From an uncultured Actinomycetes bacterium (lineage in GTDB: Bacteria; Actinomycetota; Actinomycetes; UBA12327), in the NCBI GenBank assembly GCA_903920865.1, contig CAIXNN010000036.1, positions 27,165 through 91,164 on the forward strand: a stretch of DNA of 64,000 bases. Direction: 5' to 3'. Below, piece after piece: positions 4,592 to 63,048 of this stretch. A program made the position numbers and the translations under genes. The first letter of the stretch is position 1; each line of letters starts with the position of its first letter. The notes under the pieces are model-generated. The model saw only the letters and a list, made by a program, of their open reading frames with translations, made no database searches and was not told the origin of the DNA.

Positions 4592-5386
4592 TCCATCCTT
4601 GGCCGGCCACACCCCATCGGCGGTGACCAAAACGGCTACCGAAAATCCTCGGTCCTGTGCTGTGGTGGCCGCGGCGGCGCCACGAGTAAAGGCTGAATCA
4701 AGGTGGTTGGGATCAACCCAGCCCCGCGTTCGCATCGGAACCGCTAGAGCTCGCATCCCCACCTCATGGTGGCTGGCCAAGGCCGTGCGGAAAGTCGTTG
4801 AGCCCAGCAAAGTGATCACATCGCACGAACCCATCGGGCGCAAGGTCTGGGACGGGTCACTCTTGTGGCGCTTCGAAGCCAACTGAGCCATCGTGTCCAA
4901 GTAGTCCAGAGCCGATTCCCAGCATCGCTGTGGATCAAGGTCCAGGATCTCCAACAGTCCGGCCGGGACCACCGTGGCCTGTCGTTGCAGGTGCAACTGT
5001 TCTTTGATGCCTAATCCACGATGGATTAGTTCACCCGGGACTACATCGCGCACCCATTCCTGGCCTGGGTGATTGTCACAGTCATGGGGAAGGGCAATGA
5101 CGCAAAACTGATCAAAGAAAGCAGAGCTTTCAAGAGTTACTGCGCTGTCACACAGATCCCGAGCCAACGTGAACCATTGAGTAAGTGCCGAGCGAGTAGC
5201 TGTATTTGTTGGATCGTCGGTTTCCCCAACGATGCCGGCCACGCGCTCCCAGGAAATGAAAATGTCTTTGCTTGCATTGGTTCCCGGTGTTGCCGGAAGA
5301 ACGACGCCACCTGCATGGGGCGTGAGATCAACGCCATCAAGGACGCAGACCATCAGGACGGCCTGGCGCAATTGGGTAGGGGTCAT
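4547..5386 (-). CDS. Hypothetical protein; true start uncertain, may be an internal Met
   Basis: The only protein-like ORF in the dxs-FTR1 gap. Composition is consistent with coding, unlike the Arg/Pro-rich shadow ORFs on the other strand. No motif I can assign. Its 3' end overlaps the dxs 3' end by 45 nt, convergently. Confidence 0.35.
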
Positions 5387-5455
5387 GTCAACACGGTAGC
5401 AAGGTGCAGCGCAGATTCTTACTCAACTGCTTGCGCCAAATTAGTGATTGACTCA

Positions 5456-15141: not shown

Positions 15142-15276
15142 AGAAACTCCTGTGCTGTCGGACCCTTGTTCTATAGTTGCAAACAGGTTATGAGTGAGCG
15201 TCGCATGTGGCCCCTTGGCCTTGTCGCTTCAGCAACCGCGCTTTCCCGCGCACGGTGCTTCCAAGGGTTAAACCGG

Positions 15277-15302
15277 CCGGGGAAGCCAATTGGCTTCCCC
15301 GG
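15277..15302. promoter_or_regulatory. Perfect 26-bp palindrome CCGGGGAAGCCAATTGGCTTCCCCGG; a second hairpin follows at 15309-15330
   Basis: Reverse complement is identical to the forward sequence. It lies 48 nt upstream of the phosphatase ATG and 135 nt downstream of the preceding stop. The next hairpin is GGGTTTTCTGCTGTGAAAACCC. Confidence 0.5.
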
Positions 15303-15350
15303 AAGCGCGGGTTTTCTGCTGTGAAAACCCTGATCGAAAGTTGATTTGTT

Positions 15351-16671: not shown

Positions 16672-16749
16672 TGGTGGGCGATACAGGACTTGAACCTGTG
16701 ACCTCTTCCGTGTCAGGGAAGCGCGCTAGCCAGACTGCGCCAATCGCCC
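16672..16749 (-). tRNA. tRNA-Val (anticodon GAC), CCA encoded
   Basis: Cloverleaf read by hand: acceptor GGGCGAU/AUCGCCC, anticodon stem-loop CUUCC-CUGACAC-GGAAG, T-arm GGUUCAAGUCC, discriminator A plus CCA. Confidence 0.85.
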
Positions 16750-16750
16750 G

Positions 16751-16821
16751 AGGTGGAGACGGGATTTGAACCCGTGTAGACGGCTTTGCAGGCCGTTGCC
16801 TCGCCTCTCGGCCACTCCACC
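16751..16821 (-). tRNA. tRNA-Cys (anticodon GCA)
   Basis: Acceptor GGUGGAG/CUCCACC, anticodon loop CUGCAAA, T-loop GGUUCAAAUCC, discriminator U. No encoded CCA. Confidence 0.85.
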
Positions 16822-16848
16822 GCAGAATAAGCCCGAAGGCTTCATCCG

Positions 16849-16921
16849 AGCGGACGACGGGATTCGAACCCGCGACCCTCACCTTGGCAAGGTGATGCTC
16901 TACCAACTGAGCCACGTCCGC
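16849..16921 (-). tRNA. tRNA-Gly (anticodon GCC)
   Basis: Acceptor GCGGACG/CGUCCGC, D-arm GCUCAGUUGGUAGAGC, anticodon loop UUGCCAA, T-loop GGUUCGAAUCC. The spurious ORF 16394-16915 runs through the cluster. Confidence 0.85.
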
Positions 16922-19908: not shown

Positions 19909-19983
19909 GGGCGATTGGCGCAGTGGTAGCGCGCTTCGTTCACACCGAAGAGGTCACTGGTTCGAACCCAGTATCGCCCACCA
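19909..19983 (+). tRNA. tRNA-Val (anticodon CAC), CCA encoded
   Basis: Acceptor GGGCGAU/AUCGCCC, anticodon loop UUCACAC, T-loop GGUUCGAACCC, ACCA 3' end. The spurious ORF 19923-20156 covers it. Confidence 0.85.
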
Positions 19984-49090: not shown

Positions 49091-50835
49091 TTCGCACCCG
49101 CGAAGCCGGCACGATTCGCCGCAATGATGATGGCGGCTCCGTAGTCCTGGCCGGCTGGATTGCGCGCCGTCGAGACCACGGTGGCGTGGCTTTCTTTGAC
49201 GTTCGCGACGCATCGGGCGTAGTCCAGGTGGTTGTTCATGACGCAGATATTGCCCATGGCTTGCGCAACGAAACCTGCGTAAAGATTGCCGGGTCCGTTC
49301 GAGTGCGCCCCGATGGCAACGAAAACGCAGATCTGCCCACGGGTGAGATCGAAGTCGTTGCGCAAGACGTTGAGGTGCTTTCTCAATCTGCCCCATTGCC
49401 CTTTCAAATTGATGATCAAATTGAAGTGGGCGAAGAGGCACGTCTGAAGTGGCGTTACTTGGATCTGCGTCGAAGCGGTCCCTCACGTGCACTGCGGATG
49501 CGAAGTGAAGCCAATCGGATCGCGCGAGATGTCTTACATAAGCACAACTTCGTAGAGATTGAAACGCCTACGCTCACCGCCTCCACTCCTGAAGGTGCTC
49601 GAGACTTCCTGGTACCAGCTCGGCTCAAGCCCGGAACCTGGTACGCGCTGCCGCAGTCACCTCAGTTGTTCAAGCAACTGCTGATGGTTGCGGGCATGGA
49701 GCGCTACTACCAAATTGCCCGTTGCTATCGCGATGAAGATTTCCGTGCAGATCGTCAACCAGAATTCACCCAACTTGATATTGAAATGTCCTTTGTTGAG
49801 CAAGATGACATCATCGCCTTAGGTGAAGAAGTTGTTCGCGCCCTTTGGCAGGGGACTATTGATCACACCATCGGTGAAATTCCACGCATGACCTACGCCG
49901 ATGCAATGAACAGGTACGGCACGGACAAGCCCGATCTGCGCTTTGACCTTGAATTGACTGACCTGACTGCCTACTTCGCAGACACTGAGTTCAGGGTTTT
50001 CCAGGCCGAACATGTGGGCGCTGTGGTGATGCCCGGTGGGGCAGATCAGCCACGTCGCCAATTTGACGCTTGGCAAGAGTGGGCCAAGCAGCGTGGAGCC
50101 CGCGGTCTTGCCTATGTCAGCTTTGACGAAAGCGGAGAGCTGACAGGTCCGGTTGCCAAGAACCTTTCGGATACTGAACGTGCGGGATTGATGGCAGCGG
50201 TCGGTGCCAAGCCAGGGGACTGCGCGTTCTTTGCCGCCGGTAAGCGTTCGGACGCGCTAGGTCTTCTTGGTGCGGCGCGCCTAGAAATTGGTAAGCGCTG
50301 TGAGCTCATCGATGAAAGTCAATGGTCATTTGTCTGGGTCGTAGATGCACCCATGTTTGAAGCCATTGTCGATGATGACGGCAATGACGGTTGGACCGCT
50401 GTTCATCATCCATTTACTGCTCCCAATGCGCACTGGGCCGACACGTTCACGCAACAACCCGGTGAAGCGCTTGCTTGGGCCTACGACATTGTCTGCAACG
50501 GCAATGAAATTGGTGGTGGATCTATCCGAATCCACCAACCCGGTATGCAGGCCGACGTCTTTAATGTTTTGGGAATCACTTCGGAAGAAGCCGAAAGTAA
50601 ATTTGGGTTCTTGCTCGAAGCCTTTAAGTACGGTCCGCCTCCGCATGGCGGCATTGCACTGGGTTGGGATCGCATTTGCATGCTCCTTGCTGGAGCAAAT
50701 TCATTGCGCGAAGTCATTGCCTTCCCCAAGACCGGTGGGGGACACGATCCACTGACGGGTGCACCAACGGTGATTACGCCTCGTCAGAGGTTGGAAGCCG
50801 GCATTGACGCAAAGCCTGAGCTGAACCAGGAATAG
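49087..50835 (+). CDS. aspS: Aspartate--tRNA ligase
   Basis: N-terminal OB anticodon-binding domain, class IIb core ([18 protein letters not shown]), GAD insertion and C-terminal motif 3 (GGGSIRIH). Confidence 0.95.
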
Positions 50836-51629
50836 TCACAGCGATATCCCAGCTTTTCGTAGACCTTTCGCGCCGAATCATTATCGGCATGCATGCCAAG
50901 GGTGACGATGGGAAATTCCTGCAGGAGTTGCTGCGTGATCCAGCCGGTCACAGCAACAGCGAGTCCTTCTCCCCGATGATCTGGGTGGGTAGCCACTGAG
51001 GCCAAGTGCGGCTTACCCGGAAGGCGCATGGTCTGCGCCGCACAGCACAGAACTGCGCCTGAAGAATCCACGATGCCCGCCCATCGAGTGGCCACGGGAT
51101 TTTCCGGTCCTGCCCAGTGCGTAGGGGAAGCAAGGTTGAGAAGTTCTTTGATCTTCGATGCGACGCCCTGCTCGCGGCCATCAAGCCACTGGACCTTGTC
51201 AAAGAGCGGTGTTGGTGTCGGTGCGGTGTCGGTCCACCACCAATCCCAGGGCGCCCCCTGATCTTCGTGGGCCCAGGAGATCCCACGTAGATCAAGAAAT
51301 GCTCGAAGTGATTCATACGCTGCTCGAGGGATGGTGCAGCCAGATAGTTGGCCACCATCGGGCACGCTGGGGTGATCAGCTAGGCAAGCAGAGATCAAAG
51401 CAACACTTGCACTCGGTTGACCAACCACGGTGGCCCACGGTTGATCGCGCATGTTGGACGAATCCTTAACAAAGCACACCGCCACGATCTGGCCCGCTTG
51501 GGTTGCGGAGTAGGCGCTGAGGAGTTCACCGGCGGCAAGTTCGCAGGACAAGTAGGGCTGACCTGCTGGCCAGGCCACGAGGGAGTCCGGATCCTCAACG
51601 GTTCGGATGTCCAATTCGGGCGTGCTCAT
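50784..51629 (-). CDS. GNAT-family N-acetyltransferase; the ORF is open to 51938 but the start is probably Met 51629
   Basis: The C-terminal acetyl-CoA motif [22 protein letters not shown]...[20 protein letters not shown] is GNAT motif A/B. The upstream part may be a second, degenerate GNAT lobe. Its 3' end overlaps the aspS 3' end by ~50 nt. Confidence 0.6.
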
Positions 51630-51648
51630 ACCTACTAGTGTGACGGCA

Positions 51649-52998
51649 ATGTCCTCCGACGACCTGTTTGGCGCTGCAGCTGATGCTCGTGTCCGGCTGC
51701 CCTTGGCCGCGCGAATGCGCCCTCGAACCTTGGACGAGGTGGCTGGGCAGTCACGTGCCACCGCAGTAGGCAGCCCGTTACGTCGATTGGTAGAGCCCAT
51801 TGCCGAACAGGGCGTGACGCCGGCGTCGGTTGTGCTGTGGGGACCGCCTGGATGTGGCAAAACAACGATCGCTTCAATTGTTGCTAACGCTCCCGGTCGT
51901 CGATTTATTGAACTGTCTGCTGTCTCGGCAGGGATCAAGGATGTTCGCGCGGCGATTGATTCGGCTCGTCATTTCCTGGGAGCCGATGGCTCGGAAACCG
52001 TGTTGTTCGTTGATGAGGTGCACCGGTTTTCCAAAACGCAACAAGACGCGTTGTTACCGGCAGTGGAAAACCGATGGGTCACACTGATTGCCGCAACCAC
52101 AGAAAATCCCGCCTTTTCGGTAGTCACCCCCTTACTGTCGCGATCATTAGTGGTCACGCTCGAACCGCTCGCCGATGAGGTGGTGTCTCAGGTGCTCCAG
52201 GACGCCCTCGTGGATGAGCGCGGTCTGCGCAATGCACTGACGGTTGACTCAGAGGTCTTAAGCCAGTTGGTGCGGTTGGCCTCAGGTGATGCGCGTCGTG
52301 CGCTTACCGCGCTGGAGGCATCAGCAGGGGCGGCTCAGGATCGCGGTTCGGTCGTTATTGAGCACACCGATGTGGAGCGAGCCGTTGATCGCGCCCTGGC
52401 TCACTACGACCGAGCCGGCGACCAGCATTACGACGTCATTAGTGCCTTCATTAAGTCCATTCGCGGCTCAGATGTTGATGCGGCGCTGCACTATTTGGCA
52501 CGGATGGTCGATGCTGGCGAAGATCCGCGATTTATTGCCCGGCGACTGGTCATCTTGGCTTCTGAAGACATTGGCATGGCTGACCCAAGCGCCCTAGGTA
52601 TTGCAGTGGCTGCCGCGGATGCGGTGGCTTTCATCGGAATGCCCGAAGGTCGCATTCCGTTGGCCCAGGCCGTGATCGCGTTGGCGTTGGCGCCTAAGTC
52701 CAATGCAACCATTGTTGCCATTGATGCGGCCATCGCCGATGTTCAAGCAGGTCTGGGCGGAGCAGTTCCCAAGCACTTGCGAGACAACCATGGTGGACAA
52801 ATAGTTGGCGGATCGGAATATGTCTATCCGCACAATCTTTCCGCCGGAATCGCAGCGCAGCAGTATTTGCCGGATGAATTGATTGCTCGCCAGTATTACG
52901 AGCCGGGTTCTATGGGAAATGAATCGGCCCTATCTGATCGTTTGAACAAAATTCGCCAGATTTTGAGCGGCTCGCCGCGTCCGAAGGAGCAGAAATAG
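51649..52998 (+). CDS. rarA: Replication-associated recombination protein A (MgsA/WRNIP-type AAA+ ATPase)
   Basis: Walker [10 protein letters not shown], Walker B FVDEVHRF and the MgsA C-terminal domains ([21 protein letters not shown]). The ORF is open from 51607; the Met at 51649 is preferred. Confidence 0.9.
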
Positions 52999-58203: not shown

Positions 58204-59931
58204 GTGTCCGCCTGTTCAACAACGGTTGATCAGTTCGTGCGCCGGCAGGGAGTTGAGTCCGTGAAGCAATTGGGCGACATCTTGCTTGAGGATGGCCTGA
58301 TCACCAATGAGCAACTATCGGTTGCCGTTGATCAACATCAAAACCTTGGCCGAAGTTTGGGCCGAGTGTTGGTGGATCAGGGAATTTTGTCCGAAACCCA
58401 ACTTGTGGCAGCGCTGGCTCAGCAAATCGGATTGCGCTTTATCGACCTGAGTGATTACCCGGTGGACGGTTCTGCGCTAGCCCGAATTCCCGGTTCCGTA
58501 TGCCGCCAGCACATGGCGATCCCGATTGGCTTTGAAGACGGTCGCATTGTGGTGGCCATGTCAGACCCCGCAAACGTCTTCGCGGCTGATGACATTCGCA
58601 CCATCAGCGGATACGAAGTCATTCCAGCCGTTGCCACTCGAGCCGATGTTTCGGCAGCTATTGACCGTTATTACCGCGCTGATTCCGACCTTGATGACTT
58701 GACCACTGCCCTTGAAGATGCTGACGATGGTGGGGGAGATGACCTAGCTGGACTCAAAGAGGTCGTTGAAGATGCTCCCATCGTTAAATTTGTGAATCTG
58801 CTTATTACTCAAGCTATTCAGGACCGAGCCTCGGACATCCACCTCGAGCCCACCGAGTCCGATTTGCGCGTGCGATACCGCATTGACGGGGTTTTGCACG
58901 AGATTATGCGCTCACCTAAGTCCATTCAGTCCGGCGTTATCTCGCGTTTGAAGATCATGGCTGACATCAACATTGCTGAACGTCGAATCCCGCAGGATGG
59001 TCGTTTGTCTGTGTCTGCCCACGGCAAGAAGGTGGACCTGCGTGTTGCCACCTTGCCCACCGTGTGGGGCGAGAAGGTCGTCATGCGAATTTTGGATAAC
59101 TCCACCGCCCGTCTTGATCTTGCAGACTTGGGATTCACCTCGGCCAACTACGAGCGCTACAGCGAAAGTTTTGGCAAGCCCTACGGAATGATCCTGGTTA
59201 CTGGACCCACTGGTTCTGGTAAGTCGACCACGTTGTACTCAACGTTAAATATCTTGAACCGCCCTGAGGTCAACATCATCACCGTTGAAGACCCCGTCGA
59301 ATATCGCTTGCCTGGTATCAATCAGATTCAAACCAATGTCAAAGCAGGCTTGACCTTTGCGGCGTCCTTGCGCTCGATCCTTCGATCCGACCCAGACATC
59401 GTCCTCATCGGAGAAATCCGTGACCACGAAACGGCTCAGATCGCAGTTGAGGCCGCCCTGACCGGTCACCTCGTCCTATCAACCCTGCACACAAACGACG
59501 CTCCATCGGCCATAACTCGACTGACAGAGATGGGTATTGAGCCATTCCTGGTCGGTTCAGCCGTGGACGCGGTCTTGGCCCAGCGGCTAGCTCGTCGGTT
59601 GTGCGTCAAATGCAAAGAGGCTTACCTGCCAACGGATGAAACCTTGACCGCAGCCCGAGTTAACTGGGATCTGGCTGCCGGGATGCCCACGCTTTACCGA
59701 CCAATTGGCTGCCCATCCTGCTCAGGCACTGGGTACAAGGGTCGATTGGCGCTGCATGAAGTGATGATGGTCAACGAGGAAATTGAGCGTTTAGCGGTTG
59801 AACACGCGCCCGCCACTGAGATCACTGCGGCTGCTTTGCGGTCAGGGATGGTCACGCTTCGCAATGACGGTTTGAACAAGGTTCTTCAAGGTGTGACCTC
59901 TATTGATGAGATTTTGCGAGTGGTGGTCTAG
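58204..59931 (+). CDS. pilB: Type IV pilus assembly ATPase PilB / GspE family
   Basis: GTG start at 58204 (an alternative GTG at 58261 has a GGGAG RBS). N-terminal GSPII_E N-domain, Walker A GPTGSGKST, Asp/His boxes and the tetracysteine CVKC...CPSC motif. Confidence 0.85.
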   Translation: MSACSTTVDQFVRRQGVESVKQLGDILLEDGLITNEQLSVAVDQHQNLGRSLGRVLVDQGILSETQLVAALAQQIGLRFIDLSDYPVDGSALARIPGSVCRQHMAIPIGFEDGRIVVAMSDPANVFAADDIRTISGYEVIPAVATRADVSAAIDRYYRADSDLDDLTTALEDADDGGGDDLAGLKEVVEDAPIVKFVNLLITQAIQDRASDIHLEPTESDLRVRYRIDGVLHEIMRSPKSIQSGVISRLKIMADINIAERRIPQDGRLSVSAHGKKVDLRVATLPTVWGEKVVMRILDNSTARLDLADLGFTSANYERYSESFGKPYGMILVTGPTGSGKSTTLYSTLNILNRPEVNIITVEDPVEYRLPGINQIQTNVKAGLTFAASLRSILRSDPDIVLIGEIRDHETAQIAVEAALTGHLVLSTLHTNDAPSAITRLTEMGIEPFLVGSAVDAVLAQRLARRLCVKCKEAYLPTDETLTAARVNWDLAAGMPTLYRPIGCPSCSGTGYKGRLALHEVMMVNEEIERLAVEHAPATEITAAALRSGMVTLRNDGLNKVLQGVTSIDEILRVVV

Positions 59932-60007
59932 ATGACCTTAAGAAACCATTTTCGCAGGCCGATACTTTCAACCGTATGCATCGTTAAGTGCGCACTAGGA
60001 GGTAGCA

Positions 60008-61426
60008 GTGGAGATTAGCGGGTTTGTACCACCTGACACTGACACTGACACTGATACTGACACCCAAGCTTGGGCTGCGCCTACTGATGACTTTTTCGCA
60101 GGTGCACCGATAGCTCATGATCGTTTCGCTCCAGCCAGCGCTGGTGCGCCGGCCGCTTCCCTTGCTCCTGTTGTCACGCCAGCGATGGTTACGCACGTTG
60201 CTCCTGCGCCGCAGACGGCGCCTGAGATTCCCCTGGTGGAACCAGAACTGCCTAAGCCGCCGGTTGCGCTCGAGCCGGCCCCGGCCGATCAGGTCAGCGT
60301 TGAGCCCACCTTTAGCGAGGAATACCGCCGTGCCACGACCGAAAAGGAAGCGGCTGAAGAAGATCTGAATCTTCAAGACCTGCTCGTTGAAGTCTTAACT
60401 GCAGGCGCTTCAGACCTGCACCTGACCATTGGGTCTCGCCCTGTTGTTCGCCTACGCGGAGACCTGGTCCCGTTGGAGCACTACCCGGTGTTGTCCGCAG
60501 CCGTTATCCAGCGCGTTATGTATGCCGCCATCACTCAGCGTCAGCGCGAAAAATTTGAGCGCGAGCTTGAATTGGACTTTGCCTACTCGGTTCCTGGGCG
60601 CGCTCGATTCAGGGTGAACCTGTACCGCCAACGTGATGCGCTCGGTGCCGCCTTCCGATTGATCCCTTTTGAGATCAAGTCCCTTGAAACCTTAGGTGTG
60701 CCGGCAGCGGTTTCTAACTTTGCGATGCTGCCTCGGGGGTTCGTTTTGGTCACCGGACCAACGGGTTCGGGCAAATCAACAACCTTGGCTGCCTTGATCG
60801 ACTTGGCCAATCGGAACCGACGCGACCACATTTTGACCGTTGAGGACCCGATTGAATTCCTCCACGGACACCAGAACAGCATCGTGAATCAACGTGAAGT
60901 TGGCGAAGACACTCACAGTTTCACCGATGCCCTCAAGCACGCCTTGCGCCAAGACCCCGACATCATCATGGTCGGCGAAATGCGTGACCTTGAGACGATC
61001 TCCGTGGCCTTGACCGCTGCCGAGACCGGCCACTTGGTCTTTGCCACTTTGCACACCCAAGATGCGGCCCAGACCATCGACCGTGTCATCGACGTTTTCC
61101 CACCGCACCAGCAGCAACAGGTGCGGGTCCAGCTCGCTGGCGCCCTCCAGGGCGTGGTCTGCCAGAACTTGGCTAAAACCAAGGACGGCGAAGGCCGAGT
61201 AGCCGCGACGGAAGTTTTAGTGGCCACCCCCGCGATCAGGAACTCGATTCGTGAAGGAAAGACCCACCAGATCTATTCGGCGATGCAAGCTGGTGCCCAA
61301 TATGGCATGCACACGATGGATCAACACCTCGCCGAGTTAGTCAATAACGGACAGGTCGCGTATTCAGTCGGACTTGAAAAGTGTCACCACGTCGATGACT
61401 TCAACCGTTTGACCGGACGCGGGTGA
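60008..61426 (+). CDS. pilT: Twitching-motility (retraction) ATPase PilT with ~120-aa low-complexity N-terminal extension
   Basis: GTG 60008 lies 6 nt downstream of AGGAGG. The PilT core runs from DLLVEVLTAGASDLHLTIGSRP (Walker A GPTGSGKST, AIRNSIREGKTHQI). The preceding ~120 aa are Pro/Ala-rich with PPDTDTDTDTDTQ. Confidence 0.85.
   Translation: MEISGFVPPDTDTDTDTDTQAWAAPTDDFFAGAPIAHDRFAPASAGAPAASLAPVVTPAMVTHVAPAPQTAPEIPLVEPELPKPPVALEPAPADQVSVEPTFSEEYRRATTEKEAAEEDLNLQDLLVEVLTAGASDLHLTIGSRPVVRLRGDLVPLEHYPVLSAAVIQRVMYAAITQRQREKFERELELDFAYSVPGRARFRVNLYRQRDALGAAFRLIPFEIKSLETLGVPAAVSNFAMLPRGFVLVTGPTGSGKSTTLAALIDLANRNRRDHILTVEDPIEFLHGHQNSIVNQREVGEDTHSFTDALKHALRQDPDIIMVGEMRDLETISVALTAAETGHLVFATLHTQDAAQTIDRVIDVFPPHQQQQVRVQLAGALQGVVCQNLAKTKDGEGRVAATEVLVATPAIRNSIREGKTHQIYSAMQAGAQYGMHTMDQHLAELVNNGQVAYSVGLEKCHHVDDFNRLTGRG
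60035..60064 (+). repeat. Hexanucleotide tandem repeat (GACACT)x5, in-frame in pilT, encoding (DT)5
   Basis: The units read GACACT GACACT GACACT GATACT GACACC. In-frame, so copy-number change would alter repeat length without a frameshift. Confidence 0.8.
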
Positions 61427-62655
61427 TTGTGATGTCAACTGTTACCACTTTTCAATATTCGGTACGTGACCGATCCGGCAAACTAGTTCAGGGACAAATT
61501 GACGCCGATTCGCCCACGGCCGTTGCGACCAAGTTGAAGTCCATGGGCTATGCACCCTTGAGCATTACCGCCTTTAACCCGGGTATGAAGCGTGAACTCT
61601 CGCTGCCGAAGTTGGGTTCAAAGGTCAAGCTCAAAGACTTGGCGATCATGTCTCGTCAGTTCGCCACCATGATCAATGCCGGACTTTCTTTGCTACGTGC
61701 GCTGGTGATCTTGTCTCAGCAAACTGAGAACAAGGAGCTGGCAAAGGTGCTGACCAGTATCAGCTCGGATGTCGAAGAAGGACACTCGCTGTCGGCCTCC
61801 TTGGCCAAGCACCCACGGATCTTCCCGCCGCTGATGGTCAACATGTGCCGGGCCGGTGAGGTCGGTGGATTCCTGGATTCAGTGCTGCTCCAGATCGCTG
61901 AGAACTACGAAGCAGAGGTCAAACTTAAGGGCAAAATCAAGTCCGCGATGACCTATCCGGTGGTTGTTTTTGTGATGGCCATGCTTGCCGTGGTGGGAAT
62001 GCTCCTGTTTATCGTGCCCGTGTTTGCCAAGATGTTTACCTCCCTGGGTGGCGAACTGCCTGCTCCCACGAAAGTTCTGATTTTCCTTTCTACGGTCTTG
62101 AAGTACGGCACGCCGTTTTTCATTGTCTTCGGCGTTGCAGGTTTTGTTGTGTGGAATCGGGTCAAGCACACCGAGCAGGTACGCGGTTTCATTGATCCGC
62201 TGAAGCTGCGCATTCCTGTCTTTGGCGATCTATTCGCCAAGATCGCCTTAAGTAGATTTGCTCGAAACTTGGGGACCATGATGAGTTCAGGTGTTCCCAT
62301 TTTGCAGTCGCTGGACATCGTGGCCGAAACCACCGGGAACTCCGTTGTGGGTAAAGCCGTATTAGAGGTTCAAGAGTCGGTTCGTCAAGGTGAGTCCATG
62401 ACTGCGCCGCTGTCTCGGCACCCGGTGTTCCCACCGATGCTGGTGCAGATGATGGCCGTGGGTGAAGACACTGGAGCCCTTGACGTGATGCTGCACAAGA
62501 TCTCGGAGTTCTACGATCAAGAGGTCGAAGCCACCACTGAATCCCTCACAGCGCTGATTGAGCCGCTCATGATCGGATTCCTCGGTGGCATCGTGGGGGC
62601 CATGATCATCGCCCTGTACATGCCGATCTTTAAGATCTTCGATCTCATCAAATAG
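61423..62655 (+). CDS. pilC: Type IV pilus inner-membrane platform protein PilC / GspF family
   Basis: 410 aa. Two GspF repeats, each followed by TM helices. 4-nt overlap with pilT. Confidence 0.85.
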   Translation: MIVMSTVTTFQYSVRDRSGKLVQGQIDADSPTAVATKLKSMGYAPLSITAFNPGMKRELSLPKLGSKVKLKDLAIMSRQFATMINAGLSLLRALVILSQQTENKELAKVLTSISSDVEEGHSLSASLAKHPRIFPPLMVNMCRAGEVGGFLDSVLLQIAENYEAEVKLKGKIKSAMTYPVVVFVMAMLAVVGMLLFIVPVFAKMFTSLGGELPAPTKVLIFLSTVLKYGTPFFIVFGVAGFVVWNRVKHTEQVRGFIDPLKLRIPVFGDLFAKIALSRFARNLGTMMSSGVPILQSLDIVAETTGNSVVGKAVLEVQESVRQGESMTAPLSRHPVFPPMLVQMMAVGEDTGALDVMLHKISEFYDQEVEATTESLTALIEPLMIGFLGGIVGAMIIALYMPIFKIFDLIK

Positions 62656-62693: not shown

Positions 62694-62737
62694 GGACCGA
62701 TTTTGGACCGATTGTGGATCGATTTGGGACCGATTTT
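62694..62737. repeat. Four tandem 11-bp direct repeats: GGACCGATTTT, GGACCGATTGT, GGATCGATTTG, GGACCGATTTT
   Basis: Read directly in the pilC-pilin intergenic region. The 11-bp phase is about one helical turn. Related half-copies (CCCGATTTTCG, GGATCGGGAAAATTTC) follow at 62783-62825, with A-tracts. Confidence 0.6.
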
Positions 62738-63048
62738 GACCAATTTAAGGCCGGCTTCGTGGCCACTTTTGTGCCTGCAGGGCCCGATTTTCGTGCCTAG
62801 CGGCTCGGATCGGGAAAATTTCTCAAAAAACTTGTGAAAAAGCACTCAAGGTTTTCACCCAACTGGGCGAAGTAATACCTGTCAGTGAGCTACCCGGCCA
62901 GAAAGGGCACACCCACCGAGAGGTGGGGTCGCAAAGCCAGGGGACCGCACCCGCGGTCAGCCCAGCTACCTCGGTTGGTACTTCGAAAGAAGCACCGGTG
63001 GGGACCAGAAGCCGAAGCTCTAGGTTCACCCAGAAAGGGACCATCCCG

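Follow-up and report, generated by a model that had tools for sequence, protein, structure and literature searches.

PilT-family motors with and without terminal tails

The canonical PilT proteins of known structure, those of P. aeruginosa (3jvu), Geobacter (5zfq and 6ojx), Aquifex (2ewv and 2gsz) and Thermus (5fl3), have no N-terminal tail. Here we analyze a pilT gene located in a 64-kb stretch of contig CAIXNN010000036.1 from an uncultured Actinomycetes bacterium (the whole stretch is referred to as the window). The canonical PilTs align from end to end with residues 120-467 of the encoded protein (E-values 1e-103 to 5e-118) and share with it the Walker A and B motifs, the His box, the AIRNxIRE motif and the setting within a type IVa pilus cluster. 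However, the solved proteins start where residue ~120 of the query aligns, whereas the window PilT continues upstream of this point. We estimate a probability of roughly 0.8 that the window PilT is translated from GTG 60008 and consists of a canonical core preceded by a clade-typical, probably disordered tail, which contains a fixed (DT)5 repeat and for which we infer a tether or regulatory role.

Disordered terminal regions have been described in several related motors. Myxococcus xanthus PilU (MXAN_1995) carries a clade-restricted C-terminal intrinsically disordered region of ~112 aa, for which a regulatory or auto-inhibitory role has been proposed, with genetic data hinting at regulation, and the accessory paralogue MXAN_6705 has a disordered N-terminus (PMC13584747). 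Like the window PilT, both are PilT-family ATPases with a predicted disordered terminal region conserved in one clade only. However, the PilU region is C-terminal, in contrast to the N-terminal tail found here, and neither M. xanthus region is similar to the tail in sequence. In Caulobacter CpaF, the first 79 residues (NTD0) are predicted to be disordered, and their deletion had no effect on pilus extension in a phage assay (PMC11300603). CpaF resembles the window PilT in being a type IV filament motor ATPase with a disordered N-terminus, but differs in being the bifunctional motor of a Tad (type IVc) system, in which NTD0 is followed by a 3-helix domain, NTD1.

Orthologues from metagenome-assembled genomes (MAGs) of Actinomycetota (MEI6693118.1, CAB4862157.1 and those of Motilibacteraceae, Frankiaceae and Mycobacteriales), annotated as PilT/PilU family type 4a pilus ATPases, show the same combination of tail and core, along with the N-terminal and pre-core motifs described below, although their tails differ in length (32-224 aa) and sequence. 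The window protein itself is already present in public databases, where it is annotated as PilT. Judging from these comparisons, PilT-family motors whose terminal tail is disordered are an already known kind of protein, which the window PilT would join, and the tail appears ordinary for its clade. A literature search found no description of an N-terminal extension of actinobacterial PilT. According to a review (PMC6916266), work on actinobacterial type IV pili has dealt with type IVc, and the type IVa pili of these bacteria are thus experimentally unstudied. The features of the window gene are as follows.

60008..61426, + strand: pilT open reading frame (ORF), 472 aa, GTG start, stop codon included; predicted type IVa pilus retraction ATPase
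59997..60002, + strand: Shine-Dalgarno sequence AGGAGG, 5 nt before GTG 60008, read from the sequence
60008..60367, + strand: N-terminal extension, residues 1-120, acidic, Pro/Ala-rich, probably disordered
60008..60025, + strand: conserved N-terminal motif V/M-E-(T/I)-(S/T)-G-(F/Y), residues 1-6
60035..60064, + strand: imperfect hexanucleotide repeat encoding (DT)5, residues 10-19; GACACT x3, GATACT, GACACC, in frame
60071..60109, + strand: W / FF-x-x-x-P motif (W22...F29 F30 A G A P34)
60311..60343, + strand: pre-core motif F-S-E-E-Y-R-R-A-T-T-E, residues 102-112
60368..61423, + strand: PilT core (PAS-like N-terminal domain and ATPase domain), assigned from motifs in the translation and alignment with PilTs in the PDB

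The core was identified in family searches. Residues 122-461 match positions 2-340 of the 343-position model TIGR01420 (pilT_fam, PilT/PilU family type 4a pilus ATPase) with a score of 481.3 bits, well above the family cut-off of 319.1, and the Pfam T2SSE match spans residues 122-423. The translation contains Walker A (GPTGSGKST, 250-258), Walker B (DIIMVGEMRD, 318-327), the His box (TGHLVFATLHT, 340-350) and the PilT-type motif AIRNLIRE in the form AIRNSIRE (409-416); all four are invariant or nearly so across an alignment of 46 orthologues (A1). The nearest relatives in the PDB are the PilT chains 5zfq, 6ojx and 3jvu. Family, motifs and gene context together identify the gene as the pilT of a type IVa pilus cluster, with a predicted role in retraction. 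No second pilT paralogue and no further copy of the tail were found in the 64-kb window. Neither Pfam nor NCBIfam gave a match within residues 1-121, and because the TIGR01420 and T2SSE matches begin only at residue 122, the 120-aa extension is real. The sequence-only reading of this DNA, which had placed a Pro/Ala-rich extension of ~120 aa before the PilT core, was thus correct on this point.

Translation start and nature of the tail

The same reading had taken the AGGAGG sequence to fix the start at GTG 60008, and our analysis agrees. An in-frame TAG at 59996, 12 nt upstream, means that no start is possible ahead of GTG 60008. Between this GTG and the core, the frame offers only ATG 60185 (codon 60) and GTG 60236 (codon 77) as further starts, neither of which is preceded by a Shine-Dalgarno site, and the next one, TTG 60473, would truncate the core. 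Furthermore, GTG with a Shine-Dalgarno-like site precedes the same V-E-(T/I)-(S/T)-G-(F/Y) N-terminus at four loci: L001 (the orthologue of 'actinobacterium acAMD-2', the nearest named genome), L002, L003 and L083 (a contig of the same species).

To evaluate the coding status of the tail, we compared it with the acAMD-2 orthologue. Every indel in the tail is in frame. The proportions of nonsynonymous and synonymous differences are 0.26 and 0.80 in the tail (pN/pS 0.33) and 0.058 and 0.79 in the core (pN/pS 0.07); synonymous sites are saturated, so that only these pN/pS proportions, and not dN/dS, are usable. By this measure, the reading frame of the tail is under relaxed but real purifying selection. 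Because the forward frame is under purifying selection and conserved as protein, an antisense ORF at 59984-60376 (130 aa, Arg-rich) was dismissed as an artefact that mirrors the Ala/Pro-rich frame.

These observations bear on the alternative that translation begins at ATG 60185 (413 aa) or GTG 60236 (396 aa), which would turn the initial 59-76 codons, and with them the DT repeat, into an untranslated leader. ATG is the commoner start codon, and PGAP and IMG indeed chose the 413-aa form, beginning at ATG 60185, in four public calls of the same protein within its 90% identity cluster (P0124, P0125, P0129 and P0131). However, the AGGAGG stands before 60008 and not before either of the downstream codons, residues 1-59 show protein-level conservation in the sister lineage (79% identity), and the N-terminal motif recurs together with GTG and a Shine-Dalgarno site in distant relatives, so that we regard a downstream start as very unlikely. 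Even then, a tail of 44-61 aa would remain, because the next available start, TTG 60473, cuts into the core.

Public pipelines are split on the start, giving 472 or 413 aa in the window species and 471, 389 or 493 aa in the sister species (P0135-P0147). The conserved combination of GTG, Shine-Dalgarno site and VETxGF N-terminus indicates that the 472- and 471-aa forms are the right ones, and the comparisons as a whole support translation from GTG 60008. At the pilT orthologue of L003 (~5297-5430), the VETSGY start is out of frame with the core, from which it is also separated by an in-frame stop; this break is probably an indel error of the MAG assembly or, alternatively, a real frameshift.

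The 120 residues of the tail include 23 Ala, 19 Pro, 12 Glu, 12 Thr, 10 Asp and 10 Val, along with only 5 Lys and Arg combined. The tail is accordingly 35% Pro+Ala and 18% Asp+Glu, has few aromatic residues, and carries a net charge of -17 (pI ~4). Similar values were obtained across the tails of the 46 orthologues in A1 (median charge -0.14 per residue, pI ~4, Pro+Ala 35-40%). In an AlphaFold2 model built from a 46-sequence alignment, residues 1-120 contain neither helix nor strand and have pLDDT values of 38-56. This carries little weight for the tail, because the quality of the whole model is low (mean pLDDT 54, pTM 0.34, with only residues 121-220, the PilT N-terminal domain, being confident) and the low confidence is not specific to the tail. 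Disorder of the tail is therefore a likely prediction.

The tail contains three short conserved motifs. In A1, F30 is 98% conserved and the Pro column that follows it 89%, and the pattern WxxP...DFFAG is common to the window PilT and three of its homologues (P0002, P0003 and P0007). In the pre-core motif, Y106-x-R108-x-x-T111-E112, R108 and E112 are invariant, whereas T111 and Y106 are conserved at 93% and 87%, respectively. The F30 and Pro columns were not used in selecting the sequences. In contrast, the 46 sequences were chosen for their N-terminal tip, so that the conservation of E2 and G5 in A1 is partly by construction. Independent support for these two residues comes from motif counts among the 120 nearest homologues, from the four-locus comparison of GTG and Shine-Dalgarno sites described above, and from a check of calls lacking the motif. 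Specifically, 43 of the 120 gene calls for homologues have the N-terminal motif at position 0, and 51 have it somewhere in their first 60 aa. Among three motif-less calls that were checked, the motif lies in frame just upstream in two, and the third genuinely begins at the next motif. The pre-core pattern [YFW]xRx[STMGA][TI]E was recovered in 86 of the 120 unselected homologues. The N-terminal motif was not found on the other ORFs of the window.

The sequence-only reading had called the tail atypical, on the grounds that PilT proteins normally lack such extensions. This is true of the model and solved PilTs but fails in the clade of the window protein itself. The 120 nearest homologues are 66-99% identical and, where they are named, bear the annotation actinobacterial PilT. 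All of them have between 32 and 224 residues before the core, with a median of 140; the shortest of these tails are probably truncated start calls. We also used a test that does not depend on annotation, namely, the length of the open frame upstream of the core at 78 genome loci.

Actinomycetota, 8 of 8 loci: 102-262 codons open upstream of the core
Most loci of Omnitrophota, Desulfobacterota, Planctomycetota and Pseudomonadota: 2-12 codons open upstream of the core
Armatimonadota: 30-82 codons open upstream of the core; tails Pro/Gln/Gly-rich, of low complexity, shorter and unrelated

Thus, judging from the orthologues and the open frames alike, tail plus core is the normal PilT architecture in Actinomycetota. 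When searched alone against 1.84 billion representative sequences, residues 1-125 matched a single 108-aa fragment; the tail is therefore untraceable by sequence and belongs to no domain family. Exact tandem peptide repeats are present in 8 of the 120 orthologous tails. These comparisons describe a tail that evolves fast in length and sequence, partly via tandem duplications, yet keeps its three short motifs.

The Armatimonadota tails (L012, L015-L018, L022, L027, L031, L047, L059, L066 and L067) are 30-80 aa long and end in a conserved (R/K)-(S/T)-L-E-D-(L/I/A) just before the core. At several Armatimonadota loci, the tblastn match extends over ~2 kb for ~350 query residues, which suggests an insertion inside pilT, possibly an intein.

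The (DT)5 repeat

The tract at 60035-60064 was originally read as a (GACACT)5 microsatellite. Its position, its frame and the encoded (DT)5 are as described, but the repeat is imperfect, with only 3 perfect GACACT units followed by 2 units that carry one substitution each. Tandem Repeats Finder (TRF) reports a period of 6, 5.2 copies, 92% matches and a score of 55. The repeat pattern had no match in 100 dinucleotide-preserving shuffles of the window, and across the 64 kb a score of at least 40 is reached by only four other short tandem arrays. Another imperfect hexanucleotide repeat, CGGTGT x 4.7 (score 40), was seen at 51207-51233 within an ORF on the - strand (50784-51938), so that pilT is not the only place in this genome where in-frame hexamers encode Thr-rich dipeptides.

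To assess length variation, we compared the copy number of the repeat among close relatives. The 90% cluster contains 11 distinct proteins that bear the N-terminus, encoded on 20 contigs from several projects, and in every one of them the number of DT units is exactly five. JGI metagenome contigs were also scanned, with exact flanks required around N{16,46}, a spacing that permits 2-7 units; this yielded two contigs (L081 and L082), again with five units each. Thus, no unit number other than five, and hence no copy-number polymorphism, was found in the 22 conspecific contigs, although metagenome assemblies are consensus sequences that could hide rare repeat-length alleles. The sole conspecific polymorphism is CCT/ACT (Pro9/Thr9) directly before the tract, where the window carries the minority Pro allele. 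In the sister lineage (L001/P0002, 79% identity), the site is occupied by TSVPSDDQ and there is no repeat.

Contingency loci, such as the phase-variable genes of Neisseria, Haemophilus and Campylobacter, consist of long uninterrupted tracts, with units usually not divisible by 3 and with copy-number polymorphism. The pilT tract shares with them the location of a short tandem repeat within the coding sequence of a surface-organelle gene but, unlike them, is short, interrupted, in frame and monomorphic. The proposal that (GACACT)5 is an active microsatellite, at which slipped-strand mispairing varies the length of the tail between strains and thereby tunes PilT, can draw on the capacity of tandem in-frame repeats to slip, on the indel of the sister lineage at exactly the repeat site, and on the exact peptide repeats in 8 of the 120 orthologous tails. 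However, it runs counter to the uniform five units in the 11 distinct proteins on 20 contigs and in both metagenome contigs, and to the short, mutated state of the tract; in addition, a 6-nt unit keeps the frame and is unable to switch it. We therefore consider an active microsatellite extremely improbable, and the strain-to-strain variation in repeat length that had been anticipated did not materialize.

Given that the tract is interrupted and, among the conspecific sequences sampled, fixed at five units, it is not an active length-variation locus. Judging from the sequences compared, (DT)5 is a lineage-specific expansion, now interrupted and fixed, and private to a species-level lineage. Duplication and slippage do shape the linkers of such tails over evolutionary time, but at (DT)5 we saw no indication that strains still vary. 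A role of the repeat at the RNA level was also considered and rejected, as the folding of the pilB-pilT spacer together with the repeat is unremarkable (z = +0.99). A promoter and terminator scan of this 76-nt spacer and of the repeat found no promoter-like or terminator-like site.

A possible role for the tail and the pilus cluster

A hypervariable, acidic, Pro/Ala-rich linker that connects conserved motifs at its ends is the typical pattern of a flexible tether with short linear motifs, and the tail combines rapid turnover of length and sequence (32-224 aa) with short conserved motifs (F30, R108 and E112). Each PilT hexamer would then carry six flexible acidic tethers. The tip of the tail might dock with, or compete for, a binding partner at the base of the pilus (PilM, PilC or PilB) or a regulator; alternatively, the tails might act auto-inhibitorily. 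Such docking would tune the timing with which PilT engages the machine. We tentatively propose, at less than even confidence, that the tail is a phylum-level regulatory or docking module that tethers the PilT hexamer to the pilus base or a regulator and controls the exchange between PilB and PilT. The (DT)5 repeat is located in the variable segment that separates the first motif from the second; if the tail is such a module, the repeat could adjust the length or charge of the tether in a lineage-specific manner or, possibly, provide sites of Thr phosphorylation.

The tail might instead be a neutral low-complexity appendage that is tolerated because it is disordered, with the conserved residues near the core belonging to the core fold. 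The wide range of lengths and the rapid sequence turnover fit this possibility, as do the single match of the tail among 1.84 billion representatives and its relaxed constraint (pN/pS 0.33 versus 0.07 in the core; within-species omega 0.2-1.0). Some actinobacterial lineages lack the motifs, and the disordered NTD0 of CpaF can be deleted without loss of pilus extension. However, every actinobacterial orthologue examined keeps a tail, the acidic charge is consistent across tails, and the N-terminal and F30/Pro motifs are conserved far from the core, across lineages with unalignable linkers. Neutrality of the tail is, in our view, the less likely but still a plausible reading.

Several points weigh against a motif-bearing, disordered and functional tail. 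Disorder is a prediction only, and the charge-hydropathy plot is borderline, with only 9 of the 46 tails falling below the boundary. One subclade lacks the ETSG motif, and the tails of Kineococcus and Cellulomonadaceae lack the conserved motifs. The support for the GTG 60008 start, contradicted by the four 413-aa calls, is comparative rather than direct. The docking or regulatory role is purely what we infer from these patterns, and the analogous NTD0 of CpaF is dispensable for pilus extension (PMC11300603).

The genes flanking pilT belong to the same machinery.

58204-59931: pilB, with MshEN and T2SSE domains, upstream neighbor of pilT
61423-62655: pilC, with a T2SSF domain, downstream neighbor of pilT

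In the window, pilC is followed by a pilin gene with the N-methylation motif (N_methyl). The same-species contig L083 adds four more pilin-like genes, a gene for a 563-aa protein, a prepilin peptidase (peptidase A24), and pilM, pilN and pilO; upstream of the cluster, this contig carries alaS-ruvX-mltG-aroE. Based on the window and L083, pilT is encoded together with type IVa pilus machinery, and by gene content the cluster is complete: pilB-pilT-pilC-pilin-minor pilins-pilD-pilMNO. The 90% cluster of the window PilT consists of proteins from freshwater metagenomes and from MAGs labeled 'Actinomycetes bacterium'; the nearest named genome, 'actinobacterium acAMD-2', belongs to an unclassified member of Actinomycetes and is 79% identical. 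By these affinities, the host is a freshwater actinomycete related to acAMD-2.

A c-di-GMP-I riboswitch (Rfam RF01051) was identified at 62896-62973 on the + strand (55.5 bits against a gathering score of 35, E-value 4e-8), ~77 nt upstream of the probable start of the major pilin, ATG 63050 (MLARIRKSMEEKDQGFTLIELLVV...). Taken with the MshEN domain of PilB, this riboswitch suggests c-di-GMP control of the entire pilus cluster. Upstream of the riboswitch, in the ~394-nt intergenic region between pilC and the pilin gene, an 11-bp tandem repeat (GGACCGATTTT x 4.9, TRF score 71) occupies positions 62694-62746; it may be an array of regulator-binding sites, because the 11-bp period is approximately one turn of the DNA helix. 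Elsewhere in the window, we identified a SAM-IV riboswitch at 15186-15313 on the + strand (55.5 bits against a gathering score of 38), a three-tRNA cluster at 16675-16921 on the - strand and one tRNA gene at 19909-19980 on the + strand.

The claim that first made this locus attractive, a length-variable microsatellite in pilT, was not borne out. In practical terms, the conserved GTG, Shine-Dalgarno site and N-terminal motif settle conflicting annotations of the pilT start, and E2, G5, F30, R108 and E112 are candidate residues for mutation. Actinomycetota include abundant freshwater lineages, whose pili are presumed to function in DNA uptake or attachment. A retraction motor that always comes with an acidic, motif-bearing, probably disordered tail points to a control point in these bacteria that would differ from that of the Gram-negative models.

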